A DNA stretch of 64,000 bases from positions 70,489 through 134,488 of the forward strand of contig DASXEB010000016.1 in the NCBI GenBank assembly GCA_036490335.1. The letters are read 5' to 3'. Positions 742 to 62,233 of this stretch are shown here, one piece after another. The notes below the pieces were generated by a model, which saw only the letters and a program-made list of their open reading frames with translations, did not search any database and was not told the DNA's origin. Position 1 is the first letter of the stretch; every line of letters starts with the position of its first letter. Origin of the DNA: Chthoniobacterales bacterium (GTDB lineage: Bacteria; Verrucomicrobiota; Verrucomicrobiia; Chthoniobacterales; UBA10450). The position numbers and the translations under genes are program-made.

Positions 742-875
742 CGAATCCGGTCTTACGCTGCCTAACGAGTAAAGGACTCAGCGTAATCGTTTAAAGGCGG
801 CGTCATTCCGTCCGGGCAAGCGCGTCGTTAAATTTCGCTGGCGCTCATCGCGATTCGGCTGTGGATTAACGAACG

Positions 876-1415
876 ATGAAACGCGCGCTCGTCTGCCTGC
901 TCGGGGTTTTTTCTTTCAGCCTCCCTCTCGTCGCGCAGAGCGACCTGCAAACCATCACCTCCGACCAATTGCAAACGACCGGAGAAGTTGATGCCTTCCC
1001 CGCGCTCAGCCTTTATCGCCCGGATCTTTTCAGCAGCGCGAACGGATCGCTCTTGCTGCACGACCTGCCGGTGCTCGTCCTGCTCGACGGCCGGCGCCTT
1101 TCGATTTCGCAGGATAATCGTTTCGACGTCGCATCCTTTTTCTCAGTCGGCTTTCTCAGCGCGGTCTCGGTGCAAACTGATGTCTCGCCGATGTACGGGA
1201 CCGATGCGCTCGGCGGAATCGTCAACCTTCAGACCAATCGCACTTACAGCGGAGGCCAGGCAGGTGTCTTTTACGGCGGATCGGGAGGCAAAATCGGTGG
1301 CCAGGACTTTAGTAGTTACATCATTGGCAGTGTCGGCACCGATAGATTTCAGATCACCGCGGGCGCGGCTTATGAGAAAGGCAGCGGCGGTCTCAGCTTC
1401 CGCGTGAATCATTAA
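876..1415 (+). CDS. Signal-peptide protein with a TonB-dependent-receptor plug-like domain only (no barrel)
   Basis: N-terminal signal peptide. Plug-like segments: LLDGRRL, then VSVQTDVSPMYGTDALGGIVNLQT. At 179 aa it is far too short for a full receptor. Confidence 0.5.
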   Translation: MKRALVCLLGVFSFSLPLVAQSDLQTITSDQLQTTGEVDAFPALSLYRPDLFSSANGSLLLHDLPVLVLLDGRRLSISQDNRFDVASFFSVGFLSAVSVQTDVSPMYGTDALGGIVNLQTNRTYSGGQAGVFYGGSGGKIGGQDFSSYIIGSVGTDRFQITAGAAYEKGSGGLSFRVNH

Positions 1416-1457
1416 TCTTGTTGATCGGCGAGACCCTCCGGACGCCGACTCTTCGAG

Positions 1458-2648
1458 CTAACAAAACGCCGGAATGCCGGTGATCTGTTGGCCGAGAATG
1501 AGAAGGTGCACGTCTTGCGTTCCTTCGTAAGTCTTCACGCTTTCGAGATTGCACATGTGCCGGAAGCACTCATGCGAATCCAGGATTCCGTTGCCCCCAA
1601 GTATGTCTCTCGTCGCACGCGCGACGTCGAGCGCCATCTCGACATTATTCATCTTCGCCATCGAGATATGATAATGTTTCAACTCACCGGCATCCTTCAA
1701 TTGAGCCAGACGAAAGACGAGTAACTGCGCCTTCGTGATCTCGGTGAGCATGCGCGCGAGTTTCGCCTGGATGAGTTGGAAACTCGCGAGCGGCCGGCTG
1801 AATTGCTCGCGCCTCAGAGAATATTCGCGCGCTTCTTCGTAGCACGCTTCCGCGGCGCCGATCGCGCCCCAGGCAATGCCGTAGCGCGCGTGATTCAGAC
1901 ATTCGAGCGCCGATCTCAGCCCTGTCGTCTCGGGAAGCAGCGCCACGTTGGGCAACTCGCAATCGTTGAATTCCAACTCAGCCGTCAAAGCCGCACGAAG
2001 AGATAACTTGCCCTCGATAACTCTCGCGACAAAACCTGGCGTTCCTTTTTCAACCAGAAATCCCCTGATCGCATTCGCGCCCTCGTCGCTAACTCCGGAA
2101 TCATTTTCGAGTCTCGCCCAGACAATCGCGACATCGGCCACGCTGCCATTGCCGATCCATTTTTTCCGACCACTTAGCCGATAGCCATCGGTCACTTTGC
2201 GCGCGCGGCATTGTAAGCCCGCGGGATTCGAACCAAAATCAGGCTCCGTCAGCGCGAAGCATCCGAGCTTCGCACCTTTCGCCATCGCCGGCAGCCAGCG
2301 CGTTTTTTGCTCGTCAGATCCGAAGAGATAAATCGCCATCATCGCGAGCGAGCCCTGCACCGAAGCAAAGGTCCGCAGCCCGCTGTCGCCTCGCTCCAGT
2401 TCCTGCATCATTAATCCGTTCGCGACGGCTCCGAGGCCGCGGCATCCATAACCCTTGATCCCAGGTCCGAAGACTCCGAGCTCGCCTAACTCTCCCACTA
2501 ACTCGAAAGGAAAGGTGCCGTCGCGATAATGTTGCGCGACGATCGGTCGAAAGCGCGCCGAGACCCATTCGCGGACGTGATTGCGAATTCCGATCTCTTC
2601 CTTCGTGAAACAGTCAGCCAGTCGGCAAAAGTCGGGGCTATCAGACAT
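1458..2648 (-). CDS. gcdH: Glutaryl-CoA dehydrogenase-type acyl-CoA dehydrogenase
   Basis: 396 aa. Family-typical segments: GCFALTEPDFGSNPAGL, RYGIAWGAIGAAEAC, and C-terminal NLESVKTYEGTQDVHLLILGQQITGIPAF. Confidence 0.7.
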   Translation of the reverse strand: MSDSPDFCRLADCFTKEEIGIRNHVREWVSARFRPIVAQHYRDGTFPFELVGELGELGVFGPGIKGYGCRGLGAVANGLMMQELERGDSGLRTFASVQGSLAMMAIYLFGSDEQKTRWLPAMAKGAKLGCFALTEPDFGSNPAGLQCRARKVTDGYRLSGRKKWIGNGSVADVAIVWARLENDSGVSDEGANAIRGFLVEKGTPGFVARVIEGKLSLRAALTAELEFNDCELPNVALLPETTGLRSALECLNHARYGIAWGAIGAAEACYEEAREYSLRREQFSRPLASFQLIQAKLARMLTEITKAQLLVFRLAQLKDAGELKHYHISMAKMNNVEMALDVARATRDILGGNGILDSHECFRHMCNLESVKTYEGTQDVHLLILGQQITGIPAFC

Positions 2649-2731
2649 AGAGTTATCCTGCGAGCGGCAAGTTTTGCGAACAGAACTCCTATAACTCTAA
2701 TAGTCCTCGCCAACCGATAACTGCTCCAGGG

Positions 2732-2815
2732 TGCCGGCGGAGGGGATCGAACCCACACACCCTTGCGAGTACTGGATTTTGAGTCCAGCGCGTCTGCCAG
2801 TTCCGCCACGCCGGC
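2732..2815 (-). tRNA. tRNA-Leu (anticodon CAA), long variable arm
   Basis: Reverse complement reads GCCGGCGTGGCGGAACTGGCAGACGCGCTGGACTCAAAATCCAG...GGGTTCGATCCCCTCCGCCGGCA. Acceptor stem is GCCGGCG/CGCCGGC, anticodon loop CTCAAAA, T-arm GGTTCGATCC. CCA is not encoded. Confidence 0.9.
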
Positions 2816-2827
2816 ATTTCGAGCGGA

Positions 2828-4416: not shown

Positions 4417-4541
4417 GCGATAAAGTTACGAGAGCCGGCGAAAAGCGGAAGCGTTATTTGCGCGCGCGAAGCGATTCGTTAGGCGACAAAATCGCGCGCA
4501 GAATTTTTTCCTCATCGATAACCGGGTTAATTTCTTCAAGG

Positions 4542-5552
4542 ATGAAATTTTACTCGCTCCTCGACCTCGCGCCGATCATCGAAGGCGGCGACGCCGCGCT
4601 CGCCTTTCGCAACGCGCTCGACCTCGCCCAACAGGCCGAAGGCTGGGGCTACCATCGCTACTGGCTCGCCGAACATCACAACATGCCGGGCATCGCCAGT
4701 GCCGCGACTTCGGTCGTCATCGGCCACATCGCCGGAGGGACCAAAACGATTCGCGTCGGCGCCGGCGGCGTGATGCTGCCAAACCACGCGCCGCTCGCGA
4801 TCGCGGAACAATTCGGAACCCTGGCCGCGCTTTTTCCCGGCCGGATCGATCTCGGTTTGGGACGCGCGCCGGGTAGCGATCAAATTACCGCGCGCGCGTT
4901 GCGACGAAATCTCGGGAGCGACGGCGACACGTTTCCGCACGACCTGATCGAGTTGCAATCTTACTTCGAACCGGCGCGGCGCGACCAGGTTTTGCAGGCG
5001 GTCCCGGGCGCCGGGCTCGACGTGCCGATTTATTTGTTAGGCTCGAGCGATTTTAGCGCGCGCCTCGCCGCCGAACTCGGTTTGCCTTTCGCCTTCGCCT
5101 CGCATTTTGCGCCGGATTATCTCGAAGTCGCGCTGCGCATTTATCGCCAAAATTTCCAACCGTCCGTCCATCTCGCGGCGCCGCACGCGATGATCGGCGT
5201 CGGGATTTTCGCCGCCGAAACGGACGAGAAAGCGCAGCGGCTTTTCACTTCGTCGCAGTTGCAGTTTCTCAATCTCATCCGCGGTCATCCGAGCGCGCTG
5301 CCGCCGCCGGTCGAAAGCATGGAAGGTCGCTGGAGTGCCGCCGAAAAAGCCGCGGTCGCGCAGCGGACACGATGCTCCGCCGTCGGCTCACCGACGACGG
5401 TGCGGCGACGCATCGCAGAATTACTCGAAATCACTCGCGCCGACGAAATCATCGCGACGGCGCAAATTTTTTCCCACCCCGACCGGCTCCACTCCTTTGA
5501 GCTCGCGGCGGAAGCGCTTCGAGAGTTCGTTAGGCAGGAAGACTTGGCCTAA
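4542..5552 (+). CDS. LLM-class (luciferase-like) flavin-dependent oxidoreductase
   Basis: [12 protein letters not shown]...[62 protein letters not shown] at 4542 is chosen over the upstream in-frame start. Confidence 0.8.
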
Positions 5553-5557
5553 CGAAC
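5525..5557. terminator. Hairpin made of two inverted copies of the genome word, between convergent genes
   Basis: GTTCGTTAGGC (5525-5535), an 11-nt loop, then GCCTAACGAAC (5547-5557): a perfect 11-bp stem. The right arm contains the TAA stop (5550-5552) of the LLM gene. The NYN gene stop is at 5563. Confidence 0.55.
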
Positions 5558-6384: not shown

Positions 6385-6446
6385 CGGCTCGATTTAAGGG
6401 ACGCCGCAGCGCGGCGGCAAGACTTTCCGCGCGGCTGCGGAGTTCG

Positions 6447-7685
6447 TTAGGCGCGACCCCAGATCATGGCGACGCTTGTCGTGAGGCTTCCGCCCATGTT
6501 GAAGGTGAGAAATTTTTTTGCGCCTTCGATTTGGCGCGCGTTGGCCTGGTTCGTCAGTTGCTGGTGCGCTTCGTAAACCTGACGCACCCCGGTCGCGCCG
6601 ACCGGATGTCCGTCGCCAATCAAACCGCCGCCGACGTTGACCGGAATCTCCCAACCGATTTTCCCGCTCACATGTTCGCCGCGCACTTGCGGCAACGCGG
6701 TCGCGCCGCTTTTCGCCAGTTCCGCGCCTTTGCCCGGTTCGGCGAGGCCGAGAATTTCGTAGGCGACGATTTCGGTGATGGAAAAACAATCGTGCACTTC
6801 GACGCCATGCATGTCGCGCGGTTTCAGATTTGCCATCGCAAAAGCTTTCTCGGCCGATTTGCGAGCGGTCGAAAAAGTCGGCGCGTCCTTTTTTTCCAGC
6901 GCGAGATAATCGGTCGCGCTGCCAAAACCGAGCAGTTGCGGCAGGGTCGATTTATCACGGCCGATGCGATCGAGATATTTTCCCGAGACGAGCACAAGCG
7001 CGGCAGAGCCATCGGTGATCTGCGAACAATCGGAAACGCGCAGCGGCGGCGCGACGCTCGGATTTTTTTCCGACATCTGCGAGGCGTCGTCGTAGGTCAG
7101 GTTGGCGTCGCGCATTTGCGCGAGCGGATTGAGCCGTGCGTGCGCGTAGTTCTTGTAAGCGACGGCAGCAAGGTCGTTAGGCGTGGCGCCGTATTTCTCG
7201 ATGTAAATCTGCGCGATGCGCCCGAACAATTTCGGGAACATGAAGTCGCCGTATTCCGGTTTCTCGATGTGATAATCGGCCGCTGCGCCGAGCACGTCAG
7301 AGCCGTCGAGCGACGACATCGTTTTCTGCTGTTCCGCGCCCACGACGAGCACCGCGTCGTGAAAGCCGCCCATGATCCATTGCGCGCCGAGGAGCACGGA
7401 AAGCGCGCCGGATGCGCAAGCCGCCTCGGTGTGCATCGTGGGAATGCCGTGCAGCTTTTCGTCGATCTCCGGGATGAAGGCGCCGAGATGGAGCTGCTTC
7501 GTGAATTGCCCGGCGTTGAAATTACCGACCGCTGCGGCCTCGATCTCGCCGGCGTCGATCTTCGCGTCCGCGAGCGCCGCGCGGCCCGCTTCCTTGATCA
7601 GGTCGCGAATGGTTTTGCCTTCCTTGCGGAGGTTGCGCTTAAAGTCAGTTCGGCCACCGCCGAGGATGTAAACGGGTTCGTTCAT
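6447..7685 (-). CDS. Thiolase-family protein (SCP-x / non-specific lipid-transfer-type thiolase)
   Basis: 412 aa. Has a thiolase-like active-site region HTEAACASGALSV and a C-terminal GGGLIGDGHPVGATGVRQ. Confidence 0.75.
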   Translation of the reverse strand: MNEPVYILGGGRTDFKRNLRKEGKTIRDLIKEAGRAALADAKIDAGEIEAAAVGNFNAGQFTKQLHLGAFIPEIDEKLHGIPTMHTEAACASGALSVLLGAQWIMGGFHDAVLVVGAEQQKTMSSLDGSDVLGAAADYHIEKPEYGDFMFPKLFGRIAQIYIEKYGATPNDLAAVAYKNYAHARLNPLAQMRDANLTYDDASQMSEKNPSVAPPLRVSDCSQITDGSAALVLVSGKYLDRIGRDKSTLPQLLGFGSATDYLALEKKDAPTFSTARKSAEKAFAMANLKPRDMHGVEVHDCFSITEIVAYEILGLAEPGKGAELAKSGATALPQVRGEHVSGKIGWEIPVNVGGGLIGDGHPVGATGVRQVYEAHQQLTNQANARQIEGAKKFLTFNMGGSLTTSVAMIWGRA

Positions 7686-7882
7686 AGAGTGCGAGCAAGC
7701 TAAGCCAGCACGCTCGAACTGTCATCCCGAGTGCTTTTGCGGATCGATGAGTTCATGCAAAGTTGCAGAGTCGATGACGCACGATCGACCTTCGCCACAA
7801 AATGCTTTTGTAGGATGGGGATTCGGGCGTAGAAATGGGGAACTGATCGATAGATCATTAATTCTTTAATGGAGCCCGAACA

Positions 7883-9373
7883 ATGATACAGCCACAACCC
7901 TACGTCCCGACCGCACGCGAGCAGAAGTTTCTCGAGGGCGTCGAAGAAGGCCGCTATGAGCGGGAAATTATTAGTGGGCTCGCCCCCTTCTTCAACGAGA
8001 AGGCTCCGGCGGACATGCTCAGCTTCTACTCCCCGGACGAGGTGACAAGGCTGAAGGCGCTCAAGGGCACCGATCGTGACGTTGAAGCCCGGATGCCCGT
8101 GAAGATCACGCGCCATTACTACGAGCTGGCCAGGACCAGCGCCGCGATTCAGCGCATCGTCAAGGCGGACCCCGGCGAGACGATGGATCTTGCGGGCGCG
8201 GAGGACCCCGGCAACCAGATGGACTACAGCCCCGTCGAGGGCCTGCTGCACAAGTACGAGATGGGACTCATGTACGTCATTTCGACCTGCTCGGCACATT
8301 GCCGCTTCTGTTACCGCGAAGAATTGATCGCCCGTAAGCAGATCAAGCGGCAGGACGGCACCATCGCGAAGAAAGGTCTCGCGTTGATCCCCGACATCAT
8401 CCCTTACATCAAGGCGCACAACGCGGCCGTCGCGGCCAACGGCGGTGTGCATCCCGAAAGCGGACGCGAGAAGCTGCGCGAGATCCTGATGTCGGGCGGC
8501 GACGCGATGGTGCTGAGCAATTCAAAGATCGCGGCCTGGCTCGCCGCGCTGGCCGAAGCCGGCGTCGAGTCGATCCGCATCGGCACCAAGGACATGGCGT
8601 TCTATCCCCAGCGCTTCGACCGCACCTTCCTCTCGATGCTCGATCGGTTCCACGAGACCTGGCCGCAGGTCGGCTTGCATATGATGCTGCACTTCGAGCA
8701 CCCGGACGAGTTCCTGGCTAAGGATGCGGAAGGAAACTACGTCGAGGATGCGCAGGGCTTTAAGCAGTGGGTCCCCGCGACGGGCGAAGGGATGCGGGGC
8801 CTGGCCTCGCGTGGTTGGCTCACCGTGCAGAACCAGGCGCCGATCATGAGGGGCATCAACGATGACCCGGACGCTCTCCGCATTCTGCAACGCGAGTTCA
8901 AGCGCGCCGGCGGCGAGAACCACTACTTCTTCTGCGGGCGCGACATCGTCGCCTACAAGGCATTCAACGTCCCGATCGAGACCGCGTGGAATATTCTCAA
9001 CGAGTCGCAAAAAGGGCTGTCGGGCGTCGAGGCGCACGCGCGCCTTTCCATCACCCATTACAAAGGGAAGACCGAAGTTTCAGCGGTCACCAACGAGGCG
9101 ATACCGGGACTCGCGGGCAGCGAGAATGGCGTCTTGATCTTCAAGATTCTTCGGAACGCCGGCAGCGCTCCGGACCGCGGCAAGGTCTGCATCGTCGGCC
9201 GCAACCCCGAGGCGCTCTGGTTCGACGACTACGAGGACCGCGTTCTGTTCGACGAGGCCGGCTTGTATCACTACGCGCGGGTTTCGAAATCCGGACAGGC
9301 GCCGGGTCACGCCACGGCTGCCGGACAGGCGCCGAGTCTCGGCGCTCTTCAAGCCGCTCTTGTCGCCGGGTGA
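7883..9373 (+). CDS. KamA-family radical SAM aminomutase (lysine-2,3-aminomutase-like), 496 aa
   Basis: CSAHCRFCYRE is a CxxxCxxC cluster in KamA-like context (MYVISTCSAHCRFCYREELI). GGAG lies 9 nt upstream of the ATG. It is longer than classical KamA, and substrate is not assignable by eye. Confidence 0.75.
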   Translation: MIQPQPYVPTAREQKFLEGVEEGRYEREIISGLAPFFNEKAPADMLSFYSPDEVTRLKALKGTDRDVEARMPVKITRHYYELARTSAAIQRIVKADPGETMDLAGAEDPGNQMDYSPVEGLLHKYEMGLMYVISTCSAHCRFCYREELIARKQIKRQDGTIAKKGLALIPDIIPYIKAHNAAVAANGGVHPESGREKLREILMSGGDAMVLSNSKIAAWLAALAEAGVESIRIGTKDMAFYPQRFDRTFLSMLDRFHETWPQVGLHMMLHFEHPDEFLAKDAEGNYVEDAQGFKQWVPATGEGMRGLASRGWLTVQNQAPIMRGINDDPDALRILQREFKRAGGENHYFFCGRDIVAYKAFNVPIETAWNILNESQKGLSGVEAHARLSITHYKGKTEVSAVTNEAIPGLAGSENGVLIFKILRNAGSAPDRGKVCIVGRNPEALWFDDYEDRVLFDEAGLYHYARVSKSGQAPGHATAAGQAPSLGALQAALVAG

Positions 9374-10083
9374 TGATCGACAAGCGGGTCGCGAGCGCGG
9401 CTGAGGCTGTCTCGGACATCTTCGACGGCGCAACCATCATGATCGGCGGTTTCGGCGAAGCGGGCAGTCCCGTCGAGCTCATCCACGCGCTGATCGACCA
9501 AGGCGCCACGAATCTGACGACGATCAGCAACAACACCGGCAGCGGCCAGGTCGGCCTCGCGGCGCTGCTCCAAGCGGGCCGCGTTTCCAAGGTCGTTTGT
9601 TCGTTTCCGCGCACCGCCAACTCGACCGTCTTCCCCGAGCTCTACCGAAGCGGGCGCACGAAATTGGAATTGGTTCCCCAAGGAACGCTCGCGGAGCGCA
9701 TCCGCGCTGGCGGAGCTGGAATCCCGGCGTTCTACACGCCGTCCGCGGTGGGAACGCCGCTGGCGGAAGGCAAGGAATGCCGGGAATTTGGCGACAGAAA
9801 GTATCTGCTTGAGCACGGCCTCCGCGCGGACTTCTCGCTCATCAAAGGGCGGGTCGCCGACACCCACGGCAACATCCTCTACAATAAAACGGCGCGAAAC
9901 TTCGCCCCGCTGATGGCGATGGCGGCCAAGGTCACGATCGTCCAAGTCGCCGAGATCGTCGAGCCCGGCCAGCTGGACCCCGAGTCGATCGTCACGCCCG
10001 GCATCTTCGTGGATCGCGTCGTCGCCATCGCCAACCCGGCCCACGAATCGGAACTCGTCGAAACGGGAGCGTCCTACCCATGA
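9373..10083 (+). CDS. 3-oxoacid CoA-transferase subunit A
   Basis: MIDKRVASAAEAVSDIFDGATIMIGGFGEAGSPVELIHALIDQG...ISNN is a typical ScoA/AtoD N-terminus. The ATG overlaps the KamA stop (TGATG). Confidence 0.85.
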   Translation: MIDKRVASAAEAVSDIFDGATIMIGGFGEAGSPVELIHALIDQGATNLTTISNNTGSGQVGLAALLQAGRVSKVVCSFPRTANSTVFPELYRSGRTKLELVPQGTLAERIRAGGAGIPAFYTPSAVGTPLAEGKECREFGDRKYLLEHGLRADFSLIKGRVADTHGNILYNKTARNFAPLMAMAAKVTIVQVAEIVEPGQLDPESIVTPGIFVDRVVAIANPAHESELVETGASYP

Positions 10084-10736
10084 CGAAGCCGCCGGTGATC
10101 GGGCGAACGCGCGAGGAGATGGCGCAGCGTCTGGCGCAGGACATTCCCGACGGCTCCTATGTGAATCTGGGCATTGGCATTCCGGAGCTGGTCACCAGGT
10201 TCGTGCCGGCGGGCCGCTCGCTGATCTATCACACAGAAAATGGCCTGCTCGGCATGGGCCCCGCGCCCAAGCCCGGCGAAGGCGATCCCGAGCTGCTCAA
10301 TGCGGGCAAACAGCGCGTGACGGCGTTGCCGGGCGCCGCGTATTTTCATCACGCGGACAGCTTCGCTATGATCCGCGGCGGCCACCTGGATCTTTGCGTG
10401 CTCGGCGCGCTCCAGGTCGCGCAGAATGGCGATCTGGCCAACTGGTCCACGGGCGAGCCCGACGCCATCCCCGCAGTCGGCGGCGCCATGGACCTGGTCG
10501 CGGGAGTAAAATCGATCTTCGTCATCACCCAGCATTGCACCAGGGAAGGCGAGGCGAAACTCGTGCAAAAGTGCACCTTTCCGCTGACGGGATTGGCCGT
10601 CGTGAACCGCATCTACACCGATCTCGCCGTGATCGAAGTCACGCCGGACGGATTTCGACTCGTCGAACTGAGCCCAGGCATCAATTTCAATTTCGTGCAG
10701 GAGCGCACCGGTGCGCCTCTGCTTCAAACTAATTAG
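10080..10736 (+). CDS. 3-oxoacid CoA-transferase subunit B
   Basis: Contains EEMAQRLAQDIPDGSYVNLGIGIP and HTENGLLGMGP. ATGA overlap with subunit A. Confidence 0.85.
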   Translation: MTKPPVIGRTREEMAQRLAQDIPDGSYVNLGIGIPELVTRFVPAGRSLIYHTENGLLGMGPAPKPGEGDPELLNAGKQRVTALPGAAYFHHADSFAMIRGGHLDLCVLGALQVAQNGDLANWSTGEPDAIPAVGGAMDLVAGVKSIFVITQHCTREGEAKLVQKCTFPLTGLAVVNRIYTDLAVIEVTPDGFRLVELSPGINFNFVQERTGAPLLQTN

Positions 10737-10744
10737 GAAGGAAG

Positions 10745-11145
10745 AATTAAGATTTAAGAAGGTGGCCACAGGAGATCCGGGGAAAGATTTGCGTAAACGA
10801 ACGATGAGCTTTGCCCTTCGTATTGTTCGGATGTTTTCGGCTCTGCCGAAAACGACTGGGGCACAGATACTTGGCAAGCAGGTGCTCCGTTCCGGGACGT
10901 CGGTGGGAGCAAATTATCGGGAGGCTTTCCGAGCGCGCAGTAAGCCGGAGTTCATCTCGAAGTGCGGCGACTGTTTGAAGGAAGTCGAAGAAACCGCTTA
11001 CTGGCTCGAGCTGCTTGTTGATGCAGAATTTGTCATTCCGGAAAAGCTGGCGCATCTGCAGCGGGAATGCGACGAGCTGACGGCGATCTTCGTTTCGATC
11101 ATCAAGAGTTCGAGGCGCAATACGACCACTTCTTAAATCTTAATT
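10745..11145. repeat. 17-bp perfect inverted repeat flanking the four-helix-bundle gene
   Basis: AATTAAGATTTAAGAAG at 10745-10761 is the exact reverse complement of CTTCTTAAATCTTAATT at 11129-11145. Both flanks are strikingly AT-rich compared with their surroundings. Confidence 0.8.
10804..11136 (+). CDS. Four-helix-bundle protein (23S rRNA intervening-sequence protein family)
   Basis: MSFALRIVRMFSALPKTTGAQILGKQVLRSGTSVGANYREAFRARSKPEFISKCGDCLKEVEETAYWLELL carries the family hallmarks: QLxRSxxSIGANxxEA, and KxxxxxKExxETxYWLxL. Confidence 0.8.
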   Translation: MSFALRIVRMFSALPKTTGAQILGKQVLRSGTSVGANYREAFRARSKPEFISKCGDCLKEVEETAYWLELLVDAEFVIPEKLAHLQRECDELTAIFVSIIKSSRRNTTTS

Positions 11146-11162
11146 TTTAATTCTTAATTCTG

Positions 11163-12479
11163 ATGCAAACCGACCTCTCACGCAGCGCCGCCCTCTACGA
11201 GCGGGCCCTCAAAGTCCTTCCCGGCGGCGTCAGCCGCAACGCGATCCTGCGGGCGAGTCACCCGACCTACGTCGAGTGCGGCAAAGGTTGCCGCGTGACC
11301 GACCTCGAGGGCGTCACGCGCATCGACTTCTCCAACAACATGGCGTCCCTGATCCACGGCCACGCCTGCCCCGAGATCATCCAGGCGGTGACGGAGCAGA
11401 TGAACCGCGGCACCGCGTTCATGATGGGCACCGAGATCGAGGTGCGCTATGCCGAGCACTTGTGCAGCCGCAACCGCTCGTTCGCGAAAATGCGTTTCAT
11501 GAACTCAGGCACCGAGGCGATCATGGTCGCGCTGAAGGCGGCCCGCGCATTTACCGGGCGGCCGAAGATCGCCAAGGCCGAGGGCGCCTACCACGGTGTC
11601 TACGACTACGCCGAGGTGAGCCAGGGTTCCACGCCGGCGACCTGGGGCGGCATCGACCATCCGGTTAGCGTTCCGCTGGTGCACGGGACCCCCGAGTCCG
11701 CGCTCAAGGACGTCGTTGTGTTTCCGTTCAACGACACCGAGCGCACGCTGGCGATCCTGGACGAGCACGCCAAAGATCTTGCGTGCGTCTTGATCGATCT
11801 GATGCCGCACCGCGTCGGCTTGTGTCCGGCAGATGTCGAGTTCGTCGCCGCGCTGCGCGAGTGGTCCGCGCGCCACGGGGTCCTGTTGGTGTTCGATGAA
11901 GTCATCACGTTCCGGGCCGAGCACGCCGGCTTGCAAGCGCGCTACGGCGTCACGCCCGACATGACCGCGCTGGGCAAGATCATCGGCGGTGGATTTCCCA
12001 TTGGCGCCGTCGCCGGCCGAGCCGAAGTCATGGATGTGCTCAACCCGCAGTCGCCCCGCTACGTGTTCCCGCACTCCGGCACATTCACGGCCAACCCGAT
12101 CAGCATGACCGCGGGCATGGCGGCGATGCTGAAGTTCGACCAACCCGCGGTGGCGCGCCTAAACGCGCTGACCGATCGGGCCAGGAACGGCATCGAAGGC
12201 GCGATCCGTGCGACGGGCGCGCCCGCGAGCGTCACCGGGGCGGGCTCGATGTTCCTGGTGCACATGAAGCAGACGCCGCCACGAAATTACCGCGATGCCT
12301 ACCCGACGCCCGACGAGTCGCGCCGACTCAAGGCGTTGCTCGAACATCTCCACAACGAAGGTTGCAGCATCATCAGCACGGGGACGTGCGTGTTCTCCAC
12401 GCCGATGACCGAAGCGGAGATCGACACGCTGGTAGGGGCGTTCAAGTCCGGCTTTGCCAAGCTGGCTTCGATTGGCTGA
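11163..12479 (+). CDS. Class-III (glutamate-1-semialdehyde-aminomutase-like) PLP aminotransferase
   Basis: LPGGVSRN, FMNSGTEAIMVALKAARAFTGR, LVFDEVITFR, ALGKIIGGGFPIGA (PLP lysine region). Confidence 0.8.
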   Translation: MQTDLSRSAALYERALKVLPGGVSRNAILRASHPTYVECGKGCRVTDLEGVTRIDFSNNMASLIHGHACPEIIQAVTEQMNRGTAFMMGTEIEVRYAEHLCSRNRSFAKMRFMNSGTEAIMVALKAARAFTGRPKIAKAEGAYHGVYDYAEVSQGSTPATWGGIDHPVSVPLVHGTPESALKDVVVFPFNDTERTLAILDEHAKDLACVLIDLMPHRVGLCPADVEFVAALREWSARHGVLLVFDEVITFRAEHAGLQARYGVTPDMTALGKIIGGGFPIGAVAGRAEVMDVLNPQSPRYVFPHSGTFTANPISMTAGMAAMLKFDQPAVARLNALTDRARNGIEGAIRATGAPASVTGAGSMFLVHMKQTPPRNYRDAYPTPDESRRLKALLEHLHNEGCSIISTGTCVFSTPMTEAEIDTLVGAFKSGFAKLASIG

Positions 12480-12560
12480 GCGAGCGAAAGGACGGATCGA
12501 TTCGGGCGGGTGGGATGCGTTGCAGATCATAAGAAAAAGTTTCGCCTACCGACGGGAGGC

Positions 12561-12585
12561 GCCCCCCCGGCAGGGGGCTTGTTTG
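12561..12585 (+). terminator. Possible intrinsic terminator after the aminotransferase gene
   Basis: GCCCCC (12561-12566), loop CCGGCA, GGGGGC (12573-12578), followed by TTGTTTG. Confidence 0.4.
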
Positions 12586-12623
12586 CGATCGACACGGACT
12601 GCACGACCGTGCAGGCTTTGCAA

Positions 12624-13730: not shown

Positions 13731-13740
13731 CGGAGACCAG

Positions 13741-15420: not shown

Positions 15421-15425
15421 AGAGC

Positions 15426-15848: not shown

Positions 15849-15919
15849 AGTTTCTGAAATCAATCTTTATCGCTATATCGCACTGACTCGACTTGCTTCA
15901 AACCCTCTGCCTCTGTTCA

Positions 15920-16033
15920 TCGAACGATCTGACAGTCAGGCTCACTTCCAAAACTCACTCCCGTTCGAAGACCGTCGCCAAGCCTTGTCCTACCCCGACG
16001 CAGAGCGACGCCATGCCGCGCGAGGCGTCGGTG
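15920..16033 (-). pseudogene. Orphan copy of the 3' end of the thiolase gene plus 35 bp of its downstream flank (att-like repeat, copy A)
   Basis: About 94% identical (6 substitutions and 1 indel by eye) to 17778-17890. Encodes ...ASLCVGVGQGLATVFERE* like the true thiolase C-terminus. ORF 15955..16242 in the track is this fragment fused to unrelated sequence. Confidence 0.75.
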
Positions 16034-17811: not shown

Positions 17812-19017
<1,206 letters not shown>

Positions 19018-22066: not shown

Positions 22067-22070
22067 GCGC

Positions 22071-47707: not shown

Positions 47708-48393
47708 TCAGAGCCGAAAAACGGTCGCACCTGCCCGAAGTTCGCGCGGGGCCGCGTCGCGCTGAAACAACCTCGCGCCGTTTGTTCCGCCAAGCCGGCC
47801 TTCGCCTCTCTCGAGCCGCAGCCAGGCGCCTTCGCGCAAACCGATCACGGGGGTTTCGTTCTCCTCGAGAAACTGAAGGATTCGCTCTTCGCGCGTCTCA
47901 CCCATGTGCGTGGAATTTGGATCAGGATCGAGATAGTGGGGATTGATCTGCATCGGGATCAAAACGAGGGCGGCTCGACGATCGGCATGTCGTTTGTCGT
48001 GCAAATTGTCGGGCAGGCGAGATTCGAACCCGCACTCGATCCGAGATACGCGGCCCCCGCTTCCACGCGATCGCGGAGGATGCCTAACAAATCCAGGTCA
48101 TACATCGTCTTGAGAAGCCGAAAGGTGTTCCCCCCGCCGACGAAGACCGCCTCCGCCTTTTCGATCGCGGCGGCCGGCGAAGAAGCTTCATGAATTGCTT
48201 CGACCTTGTAACCCATCCGGCCGAGCCGTTCTTCGACGCGCGCGAAATAGCTCGCCCGATCAGCGAGCGCATAGGGAAAAAAGAGAACGCGTTTCGTGTC
48301 GCCGAAAAACTCGTGAATGACTTCTTCGGCGTAATCGAGAGAGTTGCTGCCGCTGACGCTGGAGCTGCTCAGGAGAAGGATCCGTTTGTGCAA
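47708..48393 (-). pseudogene. pepE: Dipeptidase E (peptidase S51) split by a frameshift
   Basis: N-half ...VFVGGGNTFRLL...YLGSSAGSNLACPTICTTNDMPIVEPPSF* stops at 47959. The other frame continues ALVLIPMQINPHY...THMGETREERI. Both halves are collinear with E. coli PepE as I recall it. Confidence 0.7.
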
Positions 48394-50123: not shown

Positions 50124-50601
50124 GCTCGCCTCCGTTTTCGCCCGGCAGGGCCACGATCTCGAGCCAGTATTTGCCGAGCACTTTCACCACTTCTGCCATC
50201 GCGGCGAAAGTGACCGGCTTTGTAATGTAGGAGGCGGCCGACAAGTCATAGGTGCGATAGATATCCTCTTCCGCTTTCGAAGTGGTGAGGATGACTACGC
50301 GGATGTTTTTCAAGCCAGGATCGGCTTTGATCTCCTTGAGCGCTTCGCGGCCGTCCTTCTTCGGCATGTTTAAGTCGAGAAGGATAAGGCCCGGGCGCGG
50401 TGAGGTCGCCGGGTCTTCGTACTTGCCGCGGCGTTTCAGGTAATCGAGTAACTCCACGCCATCCTCGACGAAGCGCAGGTCGTTGACGAGGCGGCTTTCC
50501 TCGAATGCTTCCTTTGTCATGAGACGATCATCCGCGTCGTCATCCGCCATCAGGATTGTAATTGGCTTGCCTTGTATTTCCATTCGTTCGGTTCCTTTCA
50601 T
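50116..50601 (-). CDS. Response regulator (receiver only)
   Basis: ILMADDDADD...LILLDLNMPKKDG...VILTTS. ATGA overlap with the upstream kinase and an 8-nt overlap with the downstream kinase. Confidence 0.8.
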   Translation of the reverse strand: MKGTERMEIQGKPITILMADDDADDRLMTKEAFEESRLVNDLRFVEDGVELLDYLKRRGKYEDPATSPRPGLILLDLNMPKKDGREALKEIKADPGLKNIRVVILTTSKAEEDIYRTYDLSAASYITKPVTFAAMAEVVKVLGKYWLEIVALPGENGGEHG

Positions 50602-52055
50602 GTTTGTCTTATTGGTAGGGTAACAAAAAATGTCGCGCCTTCGCCTGGCGCGCTGCGGGCAGTGATGCTGCCATGATGTCTTTCGACGATTTTACGACAT
50701 ATAGCCAGTCCCATGCCGGTGCCTTCGTATTCCTGACGGCCATGGAGGCGCTGAAAAAGCTCGAAAATGCGATCGAGATAAATCTCTTCGAAGCCGATTC
50801 CGTTATCACGCACGGCCAGCTCACAACGCGGGATTTCGCCGTTGCCCTCGAGCGGCGGAAGCAGGCGGCTTTTCAATTCGATCACCGGCGACTCGTTAGG
50901 CCGGCGGAATTTCAAACCGTTGCCGATCAGATTTTGTAACAGTTGCCGCATCTGCATCGGATCGGCTTCGAGCTCCGGCAAGGCGCCGACCTCGACGCGC
51001 GCGCCGGTTTCTTCAATCCTGTCTTCGAGATCTGAGACGACTTCCGCCGCGGTCGCGGAAAGATCGACCCTGGCAAAAGGCTGGGCCTTGCTCGTGACGC
51101 GCGAAAAAGTCAGCAGCGCATCGATCAGACTGCGCATGCGCGTCGCCGACGACTGCATGCGCGCGAGATAATCGCGGCCTTGTTCGCCGAGAACCGAAGA
51201 ACTGCGCGTCTGCAACCGGTCGCCGAAAGCCTGGATTTTGCGCAACGGTTCCTGCAAATCGTGCGAAGCGACGGAGGCGAACTGCTCAAGCTCGCGATTA
51301 CTGCGTTCGAGCGCTTCGTTTGTCGCGGAAAGATCGGCGGTGCGTTGCTCGACGCGCTTTTCCAGCTCGGCGTTGGCGCGGTTGAGCGCTTCCGCGCCGC
51401 GGCGACGGGTCGCAAGCTCGCGCGCCGTGAGCCAGTAAGCCGCCACCACCATGCCGACGCCTAACAATGTCGTGAGGTATTGGGTCATCAATGCCATCCG
51501 ATAACTCGCGTGCGATTCCGCGTCGCGGACTCGCAAGAGCCGCAACTCTTCATTCCGCATCTCGGCGAGCAACGACGAGATCGCTTCCATTTTCAGCCGG
51601 CCGCGACCTGCCTGCACAAAGGCGCGACCACCTTCAATGCCTTGTGCGTCGCGCATCGCGACGCCCTGCCGCAACAACGTCAGCCGGTCGGCGACTAGCG
51701 GCTCGAGTCGCGCGATCCTTTCCGTTTGCGACTGATTATCGATCGTCAACGATCGCACGGTTTGCACATCGCGCGCGACCGCGTCGGCCGCCGCGTGGTA
51801 AGGCTCGAGATAAGTCGGGTCCCCGGTTAGAAGATAGCTGCGCTGACTTGTCTCCGCACTCGCAAGCGCGGCAAGGATGTCGCGCAATTCATCGAGGACT
51901 TGCTGAGTGTGAATCACCAAGCCGTCATTATGAGAAATGCGATGGATATTATTCGACGCGACCCAGCCACTGCCGATCAAGACGATGATGGCGAGGGTAA
52001 AAAAAAGGGTCGCGAATGTGCCGACCGACTGCTTTGTCTCCCGTTTTTCCTCCAT
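50598..52055 (-). CDS. CHASE3-domain sensor histidine kinase
   Basis: TM helix, then a CHASE3-like region (TQQVLDELRDILAALASAETSQRSYLLTGDPTYLEPY), a second TM helix, H-box FASVASHDLQEPLRKI, and G-boxes DNGIGF and GTGMGLAI. Start taken at ATG 52055. Confidence 0.8.
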   Translation of the reverse strand: MEEKRETKQSVGTFATLFFTLAIIVLIGSGWVASNNIHRISHNDGLVIHTQQVLDELRDILAALASAETSQRSYLLTGDPTYLEPYHAAADAVARDVQTVRSLTIDNQSQTERIARLEPLVADRLTLLRQGVAMRDAQGIEGGRAFVQAGRGRLKMEAISSLLAEMRNEELRLLRVRDAESHASYRMALMTQYLTTLLGVGMVVAAYWLTARELATRRRGAEALNRANAELEKRVEQRTADLSATNEALERSNRELEQFASVASHDLQEPLRKIQAFGDRLQTRSSSVLGEQGRDYLARMQSSATRMRSLIDALLTFSRVTSKAQPFARVDLSATAAEVVSDLEDRIEETGARVEVGALPELEADPMQMRQLLQNLIGNGLKFRRPNESPVIELKSRLLPPLEGNGEIPRCELAVRDNGIGFEEIYLDRIFELFQRLHGRQEYEGTGMGLAICRKIVERHHGSITARSAPGEGATFFVTLPIRQT

Positions 52056-52328
52056 GCGCGATCCGTTTCGACGGCAACAATCTTCCGGCCCGGTCGATCC
52101 GCAAGAGCAGGCGCGCGAAATAAACGAAGGCCGGCAGGTCGACGAACAACCTGATCTTCGCAAATGGATTCGTTAGGCAGGCTGATCTCGCTCGCGACTA
52201 ACGAACAAAAGACGAGCGGGAAACGCATCAGGTCTTCATCGATTCACCATCCGCCTTTCGCCTAACAAAAATAAGATTGGCAACACGCCGCGCCGCCTTG
52301 TAACCTCCGCCGAAACACCATTACACCT

Positions 52329-57237: not shown

Positions 57238-58092
57238 ATGCGCGCCATCTGGAAAGGCAGTATCAGCTTCGGTCTCGTTTACATTCCGGTCGCGGTTTAC
57301 CCGGCGACTCGCGAGGAGAAACTCAGCTTCCGGCAACTGCGCCGGACCGATCTTAGCCCGATCAAATACAAGAAGGTCGCCGAGGCCGACCAGGAAGAAG
57401 TCAGCGCCGATCAAATCGTCAAAGGCTTCGAGTACGAGCGCGGGCGTTACATTGTTTTAAAGGAGGAAGATTTCGAGAAAGTCCGGATCGAATCGACGCA
57501 CTCGATCGACATCACCGATTTCGTCCAGCTCGAGCAGGTCGATCCGAAATTTTTCTACAAGCCTTACTTTCTCGAGCCGCAAAAGGGCGGCGAAAAAGCT
57601 TACGCGCTTTTGCACAAGGCGCTCGCGGGGACGGGCAAAATTGGCGTCGCAAAAGTTGTGATCAGCAATCGCGAACACCTTGCCTCGGTCAAGCCGGACG
57701 GACTGTTTCTCGTCCTCGAGCTGATGCATTTCGCGAGCGAAATTCTCAGTCCGTCGGAGCTAAGCCGCGGCGTCACCGGCGAAATCAACGACAGGGAATT
57801 GAAGATGGCGCAAACCCTGATCGAGAGCATGTCGGTGCCGTGGGAGCCGGAGAAATATCGCGACGAGTATCGCGACGCGGTCATGGAAATGATCGAACTC
57901 AAAGCCAATCACAAGGAATCGGCCGCGCCGCCAGTTGCCGCGACTCGCGCGACCAATGTCGTCGATCTCGTGAAAGTTTTGCAGGAAAGCCTGGCGCGCA
58001 ACCAATCGGTGAAGACGAAGAGCAACGGGACGCGTGCCAGCCGCTCGACTTCGTCGCTCGTGAAGCGCAACAAGCGCCGGATCGCCGCCTAA
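57238..58092 (+). CDS. ku: Ku protein (bacterial NHEJ)
   Basis: MRAIWKGSISFGLVYIPVAVYPATRE...FRQL... is a canonical bacterial Ku N-terminus, with a basic C-terminal tail. Confidence 0.9.
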   Translation: MRAIWKGSISFGLVYIPVAVYPATREEKLSFRQLRRTDLSPIKYKKVAEADQEEVSADQIVKGFEYERGRYIVLKEEDFEKVRIESTHSIDITDFVQLEQVDPKFFYKPYFLEPQKGGEKAYALLHKALAGTGKIGVAKVVISNREHLASVKPDGLFLVLELMHFASEILSPSELSRGVTGEINDRELKMAQTLIESMSVPWEPEKYRDEYRDAVMEMIELKANHKESAAPPVAATRATNVVDLVKVLQESLARNQSVKTKSNGTRASRSTSSLVKRNKRRIAA

Positions 58093-58218
58093 CGAGCAAA
58101 GAACCCCAGTTCCCTAACGAGCAAAAGACTCGAACATCGCGTGGGATCGCGCCGACGCGCGATAAGCGGCGCCTCGCAATATCTTTGCCAAACGCGAGGG
58201 ATTCCCTAGAATGCGGCC

Positions 58219-60354: not shown

Positions 60355-60440
60355 GCCGATGTGGCGAAATGGCAGACGCAACGGACTTAAAATCCGTTGG
60401 GCTTTAACGGCCCGTGCCGGTTCGAGTCCGGCCATCGGCA
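60355..60440 (+). tRNA. tRNA-Leu (anticodon TAA), long variable arm
   Basis: GCCGATGTGGCGAAATGGCAGACGCAACGGACTTAAAATCCGTTGGGCTTTAACGGCCCGTGCCGGTTCGAGTCCGGCCATCGGCA. Acceptor stem GCCGATG/CATCGGC, anticodon loop CTTAAAA, T-arm GCCGGTTCGAGTCCGGC. Confidence 0.9.
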
Positions 60441-60470
60441 GACTTCCCTAACGATCGATTTGCCTAACGA

Positions 60471-60848
60471 ATGAAGGAGAACGAGCGCATGCGCCGGCTC
60501 GGGATCGAGCGTCGCGATCTCGAGGAAATTTTTACGCGCGCGAGCGGCCCCGGCGGTCAAAACGTCAACAAGGTGGCGACCGCAGTCACACTTCGGCACG
60601 GGCCGACCGGCATCAGTGTGACGGCGCAGGATTCGCGATCGCAATCGCAAAATCGGGCGCTCGCGCTCGAACGTTTGCTCGACGCGGTCGAGCGACGCGA
60701 AGAAACTGCGCGCGCGCGCAAACGCGCAACTGCGGCGAAGGAACGCCGTCGAAAATCTCCGCGCCCGCCGCGATTGAAGAGAAAAATTCTGGAGACAAAA
60801 CGAAAGCGATCGGAGTTGAAAAAACTTCGCGCAAAACCAGCCGACTGA
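60471..60848 (+). CDS. arfB: GGQ-motif peptidyl-tRNA hydrolase domain protein (ArfB/YaeJ-like ribosome rescue factor)
   Basis: [15 protein letters not shown] with a basic K/R-rich C-terminal tail. 125 aa. Confidence 0.75.
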
Positions 60849-60858
60849 GTTATCCCTC

Positions 60859-61914
60859 GTGAACGACGAAGTTCGACTCGGCGTCATCGGCGCCGGCTGG
60901 CCGGGACAACAACACGCGAGGGCGATTTGCGCGATCGCAGGCGCGCGCTTGCAAGCGCTGGCCGAGTCTAACGAAACGCGAGTAGCGGAATTTCGCGCGC
61001 TCTTTCAGCCGGAACAAGTTTATTCCGACTACGAATCATTGTTAGGCGACGACAAGATCGACGGAGTCATCATTTGTTTGCCGAATCATCTGCATTTCCC
61101 GGCGGCACTCGCGGCTTTGCGCGCAGGCAAGCATGTGCTTTGCGAGAAGCCTCCGACACTGAATGGCGCCGAGATGCGCATTCTCCAGACAGAGGCGAAA
61201 CAACAAGGTCGGATTTATTTTTTCAGCCGACAATTTCGTTTCGCACCGGCGATGCGCCTCGCGCGCGAGATCGTGGCGCACGGCGAGCTCGGCAAAATTT
61301 ATTTTGCCGAAGCCGTCTGGGTGCGCTCGCGCGGAATCCCATCGGGCATTGGCGGCTGGTTCACGGAAAAAAAACGCTCGGGCGGCGGCGCGCTTATCGA
61401 CATCGGCATTCACGCGCTCGACTCGGCCTGGTATTTGATGGGAACGCCGCGGCCGATTTCGGTCACGGCCGCGGTCTTTCGCAATTTTCCGCAGCTCGTG
61501 ACGTCACCGGTCTTCGACGTCGAAGACGCGGCCTTCGCCTTCATCCGTTTTGAGAATGACGCGGTCGTCCAACTCAAGACATCGTGGGCCGGGAATCTCA
61601 CCGATGAAATTCCGCAGGGCCTGGTCTTCGGCCGCGAGCTGAATAACTGCACCGTTTATGGAAGTCGCGCGACGATCAGGTTGAAACCGTTGACGCTTTT
61701 TCGCGACGACGACGGCAAGCTCGTTGACCAGGAACTGATTCCCGCTACGACCGAAAATCCGTTCGAGCTACAGATGAGAAATTTCGTCGAGTCGATCCGT
61801 GGCAGCGCCGCGCCAGTCAACAGCGCGGAACAGGCGCTTTACCTGATGGAAATGCTCGACGCGATTTACGTTTCAAGCAGCAACGGCCGCGAAGTGCCGA
61901 TCGCGCGCGCCTGA
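60859..61914 (+). CDS. Gfo/Idh/MocA-family oxidoreductase
   Basis: VRLGVIGAGWPGQQHARA; HVLCEKP. GTG start. Confidence 0.8.
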   Translation: MNDEVRLGVIGAGWPGQQHARAICAIAGARLQALAESNETRVAEFRALFQPEQVYSDYESLLGDDKIDGVIICLPNHLHFPAALAALRAGKHVLCEKPPTLNGAEMRILQTEAKQQGRIYFFSRQFRFAPAMRLAREIVAHGELGKIYFAEAVWVRSRGIPSGIGGWFTEKKRSGGGALIDIGIHALDSAWYLMGTPRPISVTAAVFRNFPQLVTSPVFDVEDAAFAFIRFENDAVVQLKTSWAGNLTDEIPQGLVFGRELNNCTVYGSRATIRLKPLTLFRDDDGKLVDQELIPATTENPFELQMRNFVESIRGSAAPVNSAEQALYLMEMLDAIYVSSSNGREVPIARA

Positions 61915-61982
61915 AAAAAGTCGCCTTCGCATCCATCCACGGGGCGGATTTGTCGCGAATCGGCATTGTAGTATCCAACCAT

Positions 61983-62162
61983 ATGAAAAAGCTATCCTTG
62001 TTAGTTCTGGTGATCCCGCTTTGTGGAATGCTGCTTGCGTCCTGCACCACAGTGGTGAAAGAGCCGGCCGCGTCGACAACAACGACGACGACAGATTCCG
62101 CAGTCACGCGCACGCCGACTCAGACGAGCACGACCGTGACCCGGCAAAGTACCGGTAACTAG
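61983..62162 (+). CDS. Small Thr-rich lipoprotein
   Basis: MKKLSLLVLVIPLCGMLLASC contains a lipobox, followed by a T/S-rich tail. 59 aa. Confidence 0.45.
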   Translation: MKKLSLLVLVIPLCGMLLASCTTVVKEPAASTTTTTTDSAVTRTPTQTSTTVTRQSTGN

Positions 62163-62233
62163 TCCACTTAGACTCGTTAGGCAAAAAGGGAGGCCTGCGT
62201 TTTCCTTTCGCAGCGGATCGGGCTCGCGCGGCC

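Follow-up and report, generated by a model that had tools for sequence, protein, structure and literature searches.

A hyper-abundant nine-base word in soil Chthoniobacterales with a genomic footprint resembling that of DNA uptake sequences

Uptake signal sequences have been known for more than 40 years, from two proteobacterial families of animal-associated bacteria. The closest described systems are the Neisseriaceae DNA uptake sequence (DUS), GCCGTCTGAA with its dialects, which the minor pilin ComP recognises, and the uptake signal sequence (USS) of Pasteurellaceae (AAGTGCGGT / ACAAGCGGT). Here we describe a 9-mer, TCGTTAGGC (hereafter W1; reverse complement GCCTAACGA), that is dispersed over a 64-kb stretch of the genome of a soil Chthoniobacterales bacterium (Verrucomicrobiota; contig DASXEB010000016.1, hereafter the window) and that, judged by its genomic footprint, appears to resemble this kind of signal. 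In Haemophilus, Actinobacillus and Neisseria uptake sequences occur in thousands of copies and approximately double the tripeptides that they encode, are absent from genes without homologues in relatives and are placed at poorly conserved residues (Findlay and Redfield, PMC2817400); in H. influenzae 65% of USS lie inside genes (PMC2817400). Uptake signals were still reported only in Neisseriaceae and Pasteurellaceae by a comparative study of 2025 and by a survey of prokaryotic genomes from 2026. Our literature search recovered no paper on W1, nor on uptake sequences in Verrucomicrobia or Chthoniobacterales, which agrees with the statement in an earlier note on this stretch that no described uptake sequence carries this word.

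Abundance, coding context and evolution of the word

W1 was counted as exact matches on both strands, and genes were taken from the JGI calls for this contig together with Pfam-checked open reading frames (ORFs); these replaced a first ORF-only gene model with miscalls at 23.5–25.5, 34.9–36.1, 46.3–47.3 and 53.5 kb, a change that altered W1 counts only slightly. The window held 73 exact copies (46 on the forward and 27 on the reverse strand) between 760 and 62182, making W1 its most frequent 9-mer, in comparison to 0.31 on average and at most 3 in 100 dinucleotide-preserving shuffles, an excess of more than 200-fold. Dinucleotide, order-3 Markov and codon-shuffle nulls were kept for this word, and an order-5 Markov null (51 copies expected) was dropped because it was trained on the word itself within the 64-kb sample. 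The 8-mers CGTTAGGC and GCCTAACG occurred 46 and 31 times, exactly as the earlier note had counted by hand, and 73 of these 77 were preceded by T, in keeping with the 9-mer core with a leading T that it had proposed. Its further statement that a quarter of copies read as a longer form was correct for the 11-mer ACTCGTTAGGC (19 copies, 26%) and incorrect for the 12-mer GACTCGTTAGGC (11 copies, 15%), and the density that it gave, roughly one per 0.7 kb outside 7.2–19.1 kb, was measured as 1.40 per kb outside positions 7183–19065 (73 copies in 52 kb).

The word is non-palindromic and lacks a palindromic core (TCGTTAGGC differs from GCCTAACGA). Information content directly outside its nine bases was at most 0.3 bit among the window copies, and the flanks were also unconserved across 331 copies from sister species, so W1 is a bare word and not the core of a miniature inverted-repeat transposable element (MITE) or a repetitive extragenic palindrome (REP). 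Elements of those types form longer conserved units, usually with internal dyad symmetry, and are intergenic only, whereas 82% of W1 copies touch coding sequence. The earlier note had likewise described a non-palindromic word in both orientations that was no MITE with conserved flanks. One-mismatch variants numbered 43 in the window, about twice the order-3 Markov expectation, and clustered at positions 1, 2, 5 and 9 of the word, with position 3 invariant.

Placement of W1 relative to genes showed 52 copies inside coding sequence and 13 in intergenic DNA, at densities of 1.25 and 3.1 per kb, respectively (2.5-fold), with 8–9 further copies at stop codons. The coding copies comprised 18 sense S-L-G, 8 sense x-V-R-x, 13 antisense x-L-T-x and 13 antisense x-P-N-D/E, and orientation relative to transcription was near even (approximately 27–28 sense and 33 antisense). 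The two remaining frames hold stops (TAG forward, TAA reverse) and these are used as gene stops: W1 supplied the stop codon in 9 of 50 genes outside the W1-free stretch, accounting for 7 of 18 TAA stops and 2 of 8 TAG stops. Because the word occurs in both orientations, in all four stop-free frames and, in its stop frames, as the stop of these nine genes, it is a DNA-level signal rather than an RNA or protein signal.

Synonymous-codon shuffling within each gene yielded 1.35 ± 1.1 copies (maximum 5) against the 52 observed in coding sequence, and codon usage therefore does not explain W1; the word requires codons that are rare in the window, namely TTA (81 of about 1,830 leucine codons), CTA, AGG and CCT. 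Among the peptide sites of core genes that could be spelled as W1, 52 of 68 (76%) carried it, including 18 of 20 SLG sites and all 13 PN[D/E] sites. Both tripeptides were themselves enriched 3- to 4.5-fold over amino-acid shuffles (SLG, 20 observed against 6.9 ± 2.4 expected; PN[D/E], 13 against 2.9 ± 1.7), and reversed control tripeptides showed no enrichment in the same shuffles of the window proteins. These counts uphold what had been read by eye, that the word is translated as S-L-G, x-V-R-x, x-L-T-x or x-P-N-E/D in differing genes, that it occurs in all open frames and in intergenic DNA, and that its excess does not come from codon usage.

One stretch of 11.9 kb (7183–19065) with atypical GC content at third codon positions (GC3) contained no W1 copy in comparison to 16.6 expected (P = 6e-8), and none of its 9 W1-compatible peptide sites was used, against 52 of 68 elsewhere (Fisher p = 1.3e-5). 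GC3 in the rest of the window was 0.71 ± 0.035. A part with high GC3 (0.78–0.87; 7883–12479, forward strand) encodes a 496-aa protein without Pfam match, CoA-transferase A and B, a 23S-rRNA-IVP-type protein and a class III aminotransferase, and the thiolase gene at 17812–19017 (reverse strand; GC3 0.85), also W1-free, has 96% nucleotide identity to its orthologue in the sister locus L216. These metabolic genes were present and syntenic in sister species, where they were likewise W1-free and high in GC3, and the interpretation of 7.2–19.1 kb as a single foreign insertion was dropped for this reason. Their nucleotide identity to sister species was 90–96%, compared with 75–85% for neighbouring core genes, and four-fold-site identity of the 7883–12479 genes to the sister locus L215 was 0.83–0.95, compared with 0.51–0.67 for flanking core genes. 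As the four-fold sites are this similar while those of the flanking core genes are saturated, this DNA has moved between species recently. The identities indicate recent exchange of the metabolic genes at 7883–12479 and 17812–19017, which look like a recently spreading inter-species cassette. Recently moved DNA that lacks W1 gives direct support to the claim of the earlier note that the word is missing from foreign DNA.

Within the same stretch, a cassette with low GC3 (0.59–0.63; 12510–15848, forward strand) carries an m5C DNA methyltransferase (12510–13730), a GHKL/HATPase_c_3 protein (13741–15420) and a Vsr mismatch endonuclease (15384–15848). Two ORFs without Pfam match follow Vsr in the low-GC DNA that extends to 17739, and 16933–17739 weakly resembles the PADLOC candidate family PDC-S31. 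The whole of 12510–17739 probably represents a module for restriction-modification or defence that was inserted within the transferred cassette. The segment formed by 7883–12479 and 17812–19017 was also rearranged relative to L215.

The window belongs to a 155-kb contig of JGI metagenome 3300036790, and NCBI carries the same organism as a Chthoniobacterales metagenome-assembled genome (MAG). The GyrB protein of the host was 84–92% identical to that of MAGs from soil, permafrost and comparable sources that are labelled Chthoniobacterales, Spartobacteria or Verrucomicrobiota, and sister species were surveyed through loci of up to 22 kb around gyrB from 80 GTDB species, which align over gyrA and gyrB only (approximately 78% nucleotide identity). 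In about 35 of the 80 species W1 ranked first or nearly first among over-represented 9-mers, at 0.2–1.1 per kb. Its density tracked GyrB clusters and faded with GyrB distance, and the word was absent from the gyrB loci of the most distant GyrB cluster. The identical 9-mer dominated across sister species, its last base being the softest position. W1 was present in independent assemblies from JGI, Logan, NCBI and ENA, and a metagenome scan identified many further W1-rich contigs with up to 1.4 copies per kb. Conservation in sister genomes, to which the earlier note had looked as a check on the word, is thus found across about 35 species, together with turnover.

One W1 copy within gyrB codes for an SLG that is conserved; the spelling is TCGTTAGGC in 55 of the 80 species and TCGCTCGGC in W1-free species, and the copy is kept even in species otherwise nearly without W1. 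This retention suggests that W1 predates the clade in which it is now dense and was later eroded in some lineages. The gyrB and gyrA genes are adjacent and on the same strand (L001:14016–19159, extending beyond the window end).

Evolution of individual copies was followed in the FadB neighbourhood from three sister species and in codon alignments of nine orthologous genes (3–4 species). These nine genes carried 24 copies in the genome of the window and 4, 8 and 10 in its relatives; of 28 orthologous W1 sites, 18 were species-specific and 10 were shared, and at the nine sites of the FadB-like gene the three sister species carried the word 1, 2 and 3 times. Some changes were synonymous, as in RLTI (GCCTAACGA versus GCCTGACGA or GGCTGACCA) and LVRQ (TCGTTAGGC versus TGGTCCGCC), and others altered the protein (VPQE to VPNE, SLA/SLQ to SLG, IKKL/IEKL to IVRL and ALKI to GLTI). 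One-mismatch intermediates were found at orthologous sites (GCCTAATGA, GCCCAACGA, TTGTTAGGC and GCGTTAGGC), and shared copies were identical at 9 of 9 bases although the surrounding four-fold sites were saturated (0.51–0.67 identity). As read from these alignments, such turnover is what a directional force on a DNA word would produce, through gain by point substitution, maintenance, and override of codon preference and of weakly constrained residues.

A second word, AAGATCGACA (W2), was dispersed through two W1-free loci in 16–19 copies per 13–22 kb (L055:137–12541 and L074:176–22443) and was weaker in L068 and L073. W2 is found in either orientation and across several frames (KID-, -VDL, LSIL and QDR-), and some of its positions are orthologous between L055 and L074. 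Two further candidate 'dialects', AACGTCCAACG in L061 and CGCCCAACGCC in L065, were rejected when a listing of their positions revealed tandem heptamer arrays, (ACGTCCA)n and (CGCCCAA)n. These arrays lie near gyrB in two Chthoniobacterales species, at L061:3479–3620 (about 20 units of ACGTCCA) and L065:1407–1492 (about 12 units of CGCCCAA), and their seven-base units would shift the reading frame if placed inside coding sequence.

An uptake signal weighed against other explanations

The footprint of W1 matches that of the uptake sequences of Haemophilus, Actinobacillus and Neisseria point by point (PMC2817400), and a DUS/USS-like signal is therefore rated as the best explanation. W1 would accordingly be a lineage-specific 'self' word, a DNA uptake enhancing sequence spread by molecular drive, and we hold this to be about evenly balanced between right and wrong. 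Such a word would bring together the genomic footprint, the turnover by point substitution, the override of codons and amino acids, the absence from imported DNA, the clade-wide distribution and the second, unrelated word of a sister lineage, and from these we infer biased uptake as the driving force and what the receptor may be. In the proposed mechanism a surface DNA receptor, by analogy either a ComEA-like protein in the periplasm or a minor pilin belonging to a retractile type IVa pilus, would preferentially capture double-stranded DNA bearing W1. Captured fragments would be drawn in and made single-stranded (ComEC), and DprA would then load RecA for their recombination into the chromosome. 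Mutations that create or improve W1 would then be over-represented among incoming alleles, and the word would for that reason spread by molecular drive, through point substitution, to every tolerated position. We propose more tentatively, and with somewhat less than even confidence, that DNA uptake specific for a 'self' sequence also occurs beyond the Proteobacteria, in soil Chthoniobacterales, that it has arisen at least twice in this order (words TCGTTAGGC and AAGATCGACA), that its receptor is unrelated to ComP, and that the drive fills about three quarters of synonymous sites and rewrites amino acids.

Several points weigh against this proposal. A large fraction of the uptake signals in Neisseriaceae and Pasteurellaceae sits in terminators, whereas among the 73 copies of W1 inverted pairs were confined to two perfect ones (5527/5547 and 38830/38857) and a single imperfect one. 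The earlier note had favoured a DUS/USS-like reading, and every testable sequence-level prediction of it held; its description of inverted pairs after stop codons as 'terminator-forming' fared poorly, with only these 2–3 pairs. The literature search found no member of this uncultured lineage with data on DNA uptake or transformation, and any other strong force on a DNA word would yield the same sequence-level features. Strand use in the window was mildly uneven (46:27, binomial p = 0.03), and polarity was read on fragments of 13–64 kb with weak GC skew and not on a whole replichore. No pilus or Com genes were present among the annotated genes in 80 kb of this genome, and tblastn with E. coli queries that may be too distant (HofQ, HofM, HofN, HofC, PpdD, YcaI (ComEC) and YbaV (ComEA)) gave no match to ComEC, ComEA, PilQ or pilins in approximately 1.9 Mb of related DNA. 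Recombination and ComEC homologues are described in Angelo-meadow soil Verrucomicrobia populations (Crits-Christoph et al., PMC7305173) which, from their GC content and the names of the samples, seem to match the cluster that lacks W1; ComEC that occurs in populations without W1 is therefore not discriminating.

Other parts of such machinery were recovered. PilT/PilU type IVa pilus ATPases scored above the NCBIfam cut-off in L011, a W1 locus, and in L074, a W2 locus (TIGR01420, 341–447 bits versus 319), and a DprA homologue was encoded on the W1-rich metagenome contig L174. PilT/PilU-family genes were located a few kb from gyrB (L010:16–1926, L011:1414–3675, L014:1258–2835, L074:5781–7073 and about 12 further loci), in some species as tandem pairs, and a response-regulator gene adjoins them in L011.

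The main rival to an uptake signal is a hyper-abundant motif comparable to highly iterated palindrome 1 (HIP1), on which selection or biased repair or recombination would act inside the cell, as a methylation-dependent signal or non-polar hotspot, with no recognition at the cell surface; we consider this unlikely, if the most credible of the alternatives. Cyanobacterial HIP1 is likewise hyper-abundant in all frames, and its function stayed unclear for decades (PMC5861425, PMC4390886). HIP1 also raises transformation in a methylation- and homology-dependent manner and may act at the recombination step (bioRxiv 10.1101/2024.09.10.611283). The footprint data of W1 fit an intracellular force equally well, and W2 includes two typical methylation sites, GATC and TCGA. 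However, W1 has neither a palindrome nor a palindromic core, unlike all HIP variants, and it could be linked to no methyltransferase, as the window's single methylase–Vsr pair lies in the W1-free imported cassette; moreover, Vsr-type repair acts on contexts of about five bases and not on a 9-mer. An array of binding sites for a chromosome-organising or repair protein, whether a nucleoid or segregation factor or a signal for a translocase or helicase-nuclease of the kind represented by Chi and the FtsK orienting polar sequences (KOPS), is improbable. The mild strand skew of the window would fit such an array, as would the ratio of 165:107 in sister loci oriented on gyrB, yet the orientation bias relative to gyrB was opposite in this genome and in the sister loci. 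Orientation was also unlinked to GC skew, the G-rich strand carrying 169 copies and the C-rich strand 176 in 33 fragments holding at least 5 copies each (13–64 kb, weak GC skew), so the strand skew that the earlier note had named as favouring KOPS or Chi was not seen at the scale of these fragments. In the window, runs of orientation were as expected by chance (runs test z = -1.3) and spacing showed no periodicity or regularity (coefficient of variation 0.91). Chi and KOPS occur about once per 4–12 kb, are few-fold over-represented and are 75–90% polar, in contrast to the 1.4 copies per kb, more than 200-fold excess and irregular spacing of W1. Signals of this type place at least 75–90% of copies on one strand per replichore with a moderate excess, and W1 in the window was divided 63:37 with mixed runs; at the scale of these fragments the polarity data argue, though not conclusively, against a Chi- or KOPS-type signal. 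Additionally, we know of no nucleoid protein that uses thousands of exact 9-mers.

Alternatively, W1 could be a self-marker for a nuclease or defence system that protects or marks resident DNA or modulates incoming single-stranded DNA, on the model of the NTS repeats cut by Ssn in Neisseria, an idea that we regard as slightly less probable again than a protein-binding array. A Neisseria repeat read by a site-specific single-stranded DNA nuclease is reported to modulate transformation, and the nuclease family to be widespread (PMC11893778). Absence of W1 from imported DNA fits such a marker, but the window showed no candidate nuclease. NTS-type repeats exceed W1 in length and are palindromic and intergenic, while W1 is a 9-mer located mostly inside genes, and a scan of viral contigs for the inverted W1 pair gave one plausible W1-bearing virus and no sign of phage mimicry. 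A passive by-product, whether of codon usage, of a mobile element, of a recurring protein motif or of faulty assembly, has a negligible chance of being correct. In its favour SLG is a common tripeptide, with nothing else beyond its prior; against it stand the codon null (1.35 versus 52 observed) and the use of rare codons, the spread over four frames and both orientations without conserved flanks, and the occurrence of W1 in the independent JGI, Logan, NCBI and ENA assemblies. Passive explanations are excluded on these grounds.

Individual copies and neighbouring genes

Forward-strand copies of W1 start at 3273, 4476, 5527, 5864, 6444, 7174, 19066, 20516, 22451, 23502, 23661, 24474, 25540, 25720, 25767, 26628, 26910, 27181, 28999, 30519, 30567, 31875, 32617, 33304, 33924, 34283, 37408, 38368, 38613, 38857, 40344, 40892, 43482, 44344, 45036, 46629, 47693, 49985, 50893, 52170, 53560, 53986, 57037, 58252, 60061 and 62174. 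Reverse-strand copies, read as GCCTAACGA on the forward strand, start at 760, 2933, 5547, 21013, 21122, 21401, 21944, 22069, 22818, 25880, 26741, 26870, 35088, 36756, 36986, 37016, 37114, 37499, 38830, 40612, 42285, 43030, 45551, 46342, 53918, 58087 and 60462. The perfect inverted pair TCGTTAGGC-N11-GCCTAACGA at 5527–5555, a predicted hairpin with 0 mismatches, lies at the end of gene 4458–5552 (forward), the TAA stop of which is provided by its second arm. A perfect pair in the opposite arrangement, GCCTAACGA-N18-TCGTTAGGC, occupies 38830–38865 within the 39-base gap between genes 38162–38827 and 38867–40135 (both reverse). The imperfect pair (52170–52204) joins an exact copy at 52170 to a one-mismatch partner at 52196, downstream of a histidine-kinase gene (50598–52055, reverse).

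Forward-strand copies provide the TAA stop of five reverse-strand genes, these being a thiolase-like gene (copy 6444–6452; gene 6447–7685), gene 19069–20475 (19066–19074, the first copy after the W1-free stretch), an aldehyde dehydrogenase (ALDH) gene (20516–20524; gene 20519–22066), a GFO/IDH/MocA gene (28999–29007; gene 29002–30060) and an HhH-GPD gene (45036–45044; gene 45039–45677). Reverse-strand copies provide the TAG stop of an aminotransferase gene (22069–22077; gene 22071–23459, reverse) and of gene 36758–37645 (36756–36764; reverse), and the TAA stop of a Ku gene (58087–58095; gene 57238–58092, forward). The FadB-like gene (25418–27493, reverse) contains nine copies in three differing frames, the number given in the earlier note; that note had also assigned six copies to the ALDH gene (reverse), which in fact holds 4 internal copies and the copy at its stop, the sixth being the stop of the next gene. 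The 295-aa protein encoded at 36758–37645 has no Pfam match, carries 5 internal copies in addition to its stop copy, the highest density in the window, and has an orthologue in L216 that is only 67% identical.

Two tRNA genes are present in the window (2732–2815, reverse; 60355–60440, forward), and a W1 copy at 60462 lies 22 bases downstream of the second. Adjacent gene fragments of PEP_mutase (141 + 144 aa) and Peptidase_S51 (81 + 144 aa) at 46841–47679 and 47708–48393 may be frameshifted pseudogenes or assembly errors.

Beyond the window, a long near-perfect hairpin, (a/g)atgatggg-TCGTTAGGCACAC-loop-GTGTGCCTAACGA-cccatcat, was observed in many high-GC soil contigs (metagenome contigs of 68–73% GC; L103, L110, L114, L115, L116, L121, L122, L127, L130, L135, L138, L140, L147, L157, L158 and L169). 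Because these contigs are otherwise without W1, the hairpin is a different conserved element with the same 9-mer in its stem by chance; Rfam gave no match in the four hairpin loci searched. The viral-contig scan returned four contigs, three of them chance matches in viruses of 43–65% GC, and the only plausible carrier was L087 (IMGVR_UViG_3300010366_000067), predicted to be viral, with 54% GC and 4 W1 copies in 4.3 kb.

Significance and comparison with known systems

If W1 is an uptake signal, it would represent a third independent case, in another phylum and in dozens of species of a highly abundant soil lineage, and self-biased DNA uptake would be a recurrent evolutionary solution and not a peculiarity of two families. 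It would also constitute direct genomic evidence of natural transformability in uncultured soil Verrucomicrobia and offer a mechanism for the recombination seen in soil populations. Donor DNA furnished with W1 might open these unculturable organisms to genetic work, and foreign DNA in their MAGs could be flagged by the word, a use already made of DUS in Neisseriaceae (PMC7371117). Should W1 turn out to be something else, it would stand as a non-palindromic analogue of HIP1, present at thousands of copies per genome.

Among the systems with which W1 can be compared, Chi and KOPS (or architecture-imparting sequences) are also short, over-represented and non-palindromic, and Chi and KOPS are read by DNA-processing enzymes. 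They are strongly replication-polar, far rarer and modestly enriched, whereas W1 is unlinked to GC skew and in more than 200-fold excess. HIP1 (GCGATCGC) of cyanobacteria is closer, being a hyper-abundant 8–9-mer in all frames, clade-specific with variants and possibly linked to transformation. HIP1 is, however, a palindrome tied to cognate orphan methyltransferases, while W1 is non-palindromic with no methylase linked to it.

The comparison with USS concerns the genomic footprint only, as W1 is known from sequence alone. The two differ in that the flanks of W1 are neither AT-rich nor otherwise conserved across species, and in that W1 needs rare codons whereas the frames of USS track preferred codons (PMC2817400). 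They share a 9-base core located mostly in genes and in both orientations, enrichment of the tripeptides that they encode, a lack of copies in genes that have no homologue in relatives, and the existence of two unrelated-looking types in one taxon.

W1 and DUS are unrelated in sequence and belong to different phyla, W1 being found in Verrucomicrobiota. W1 forms very few inverted pairs of the terminator type, 82% of its copies touch coding sequence compared with approximately 35% for N. meningitidis DUS (PMC2817400), and the sister-lineage word W2 is unrelated to W1, unlike the one-base dialects of DUS. DUS has the ComP receptor, and W1 is likened to it by footprint. In that footprint the two share several features: both are non-palindromic words of 9–12 bases at about one per kb, both occur in either orientation in coding and intergenic DNA and are depleted in imported elements, and both are common to related species with lineage-specific variation and alter the frequencies of the peptides that they encode.

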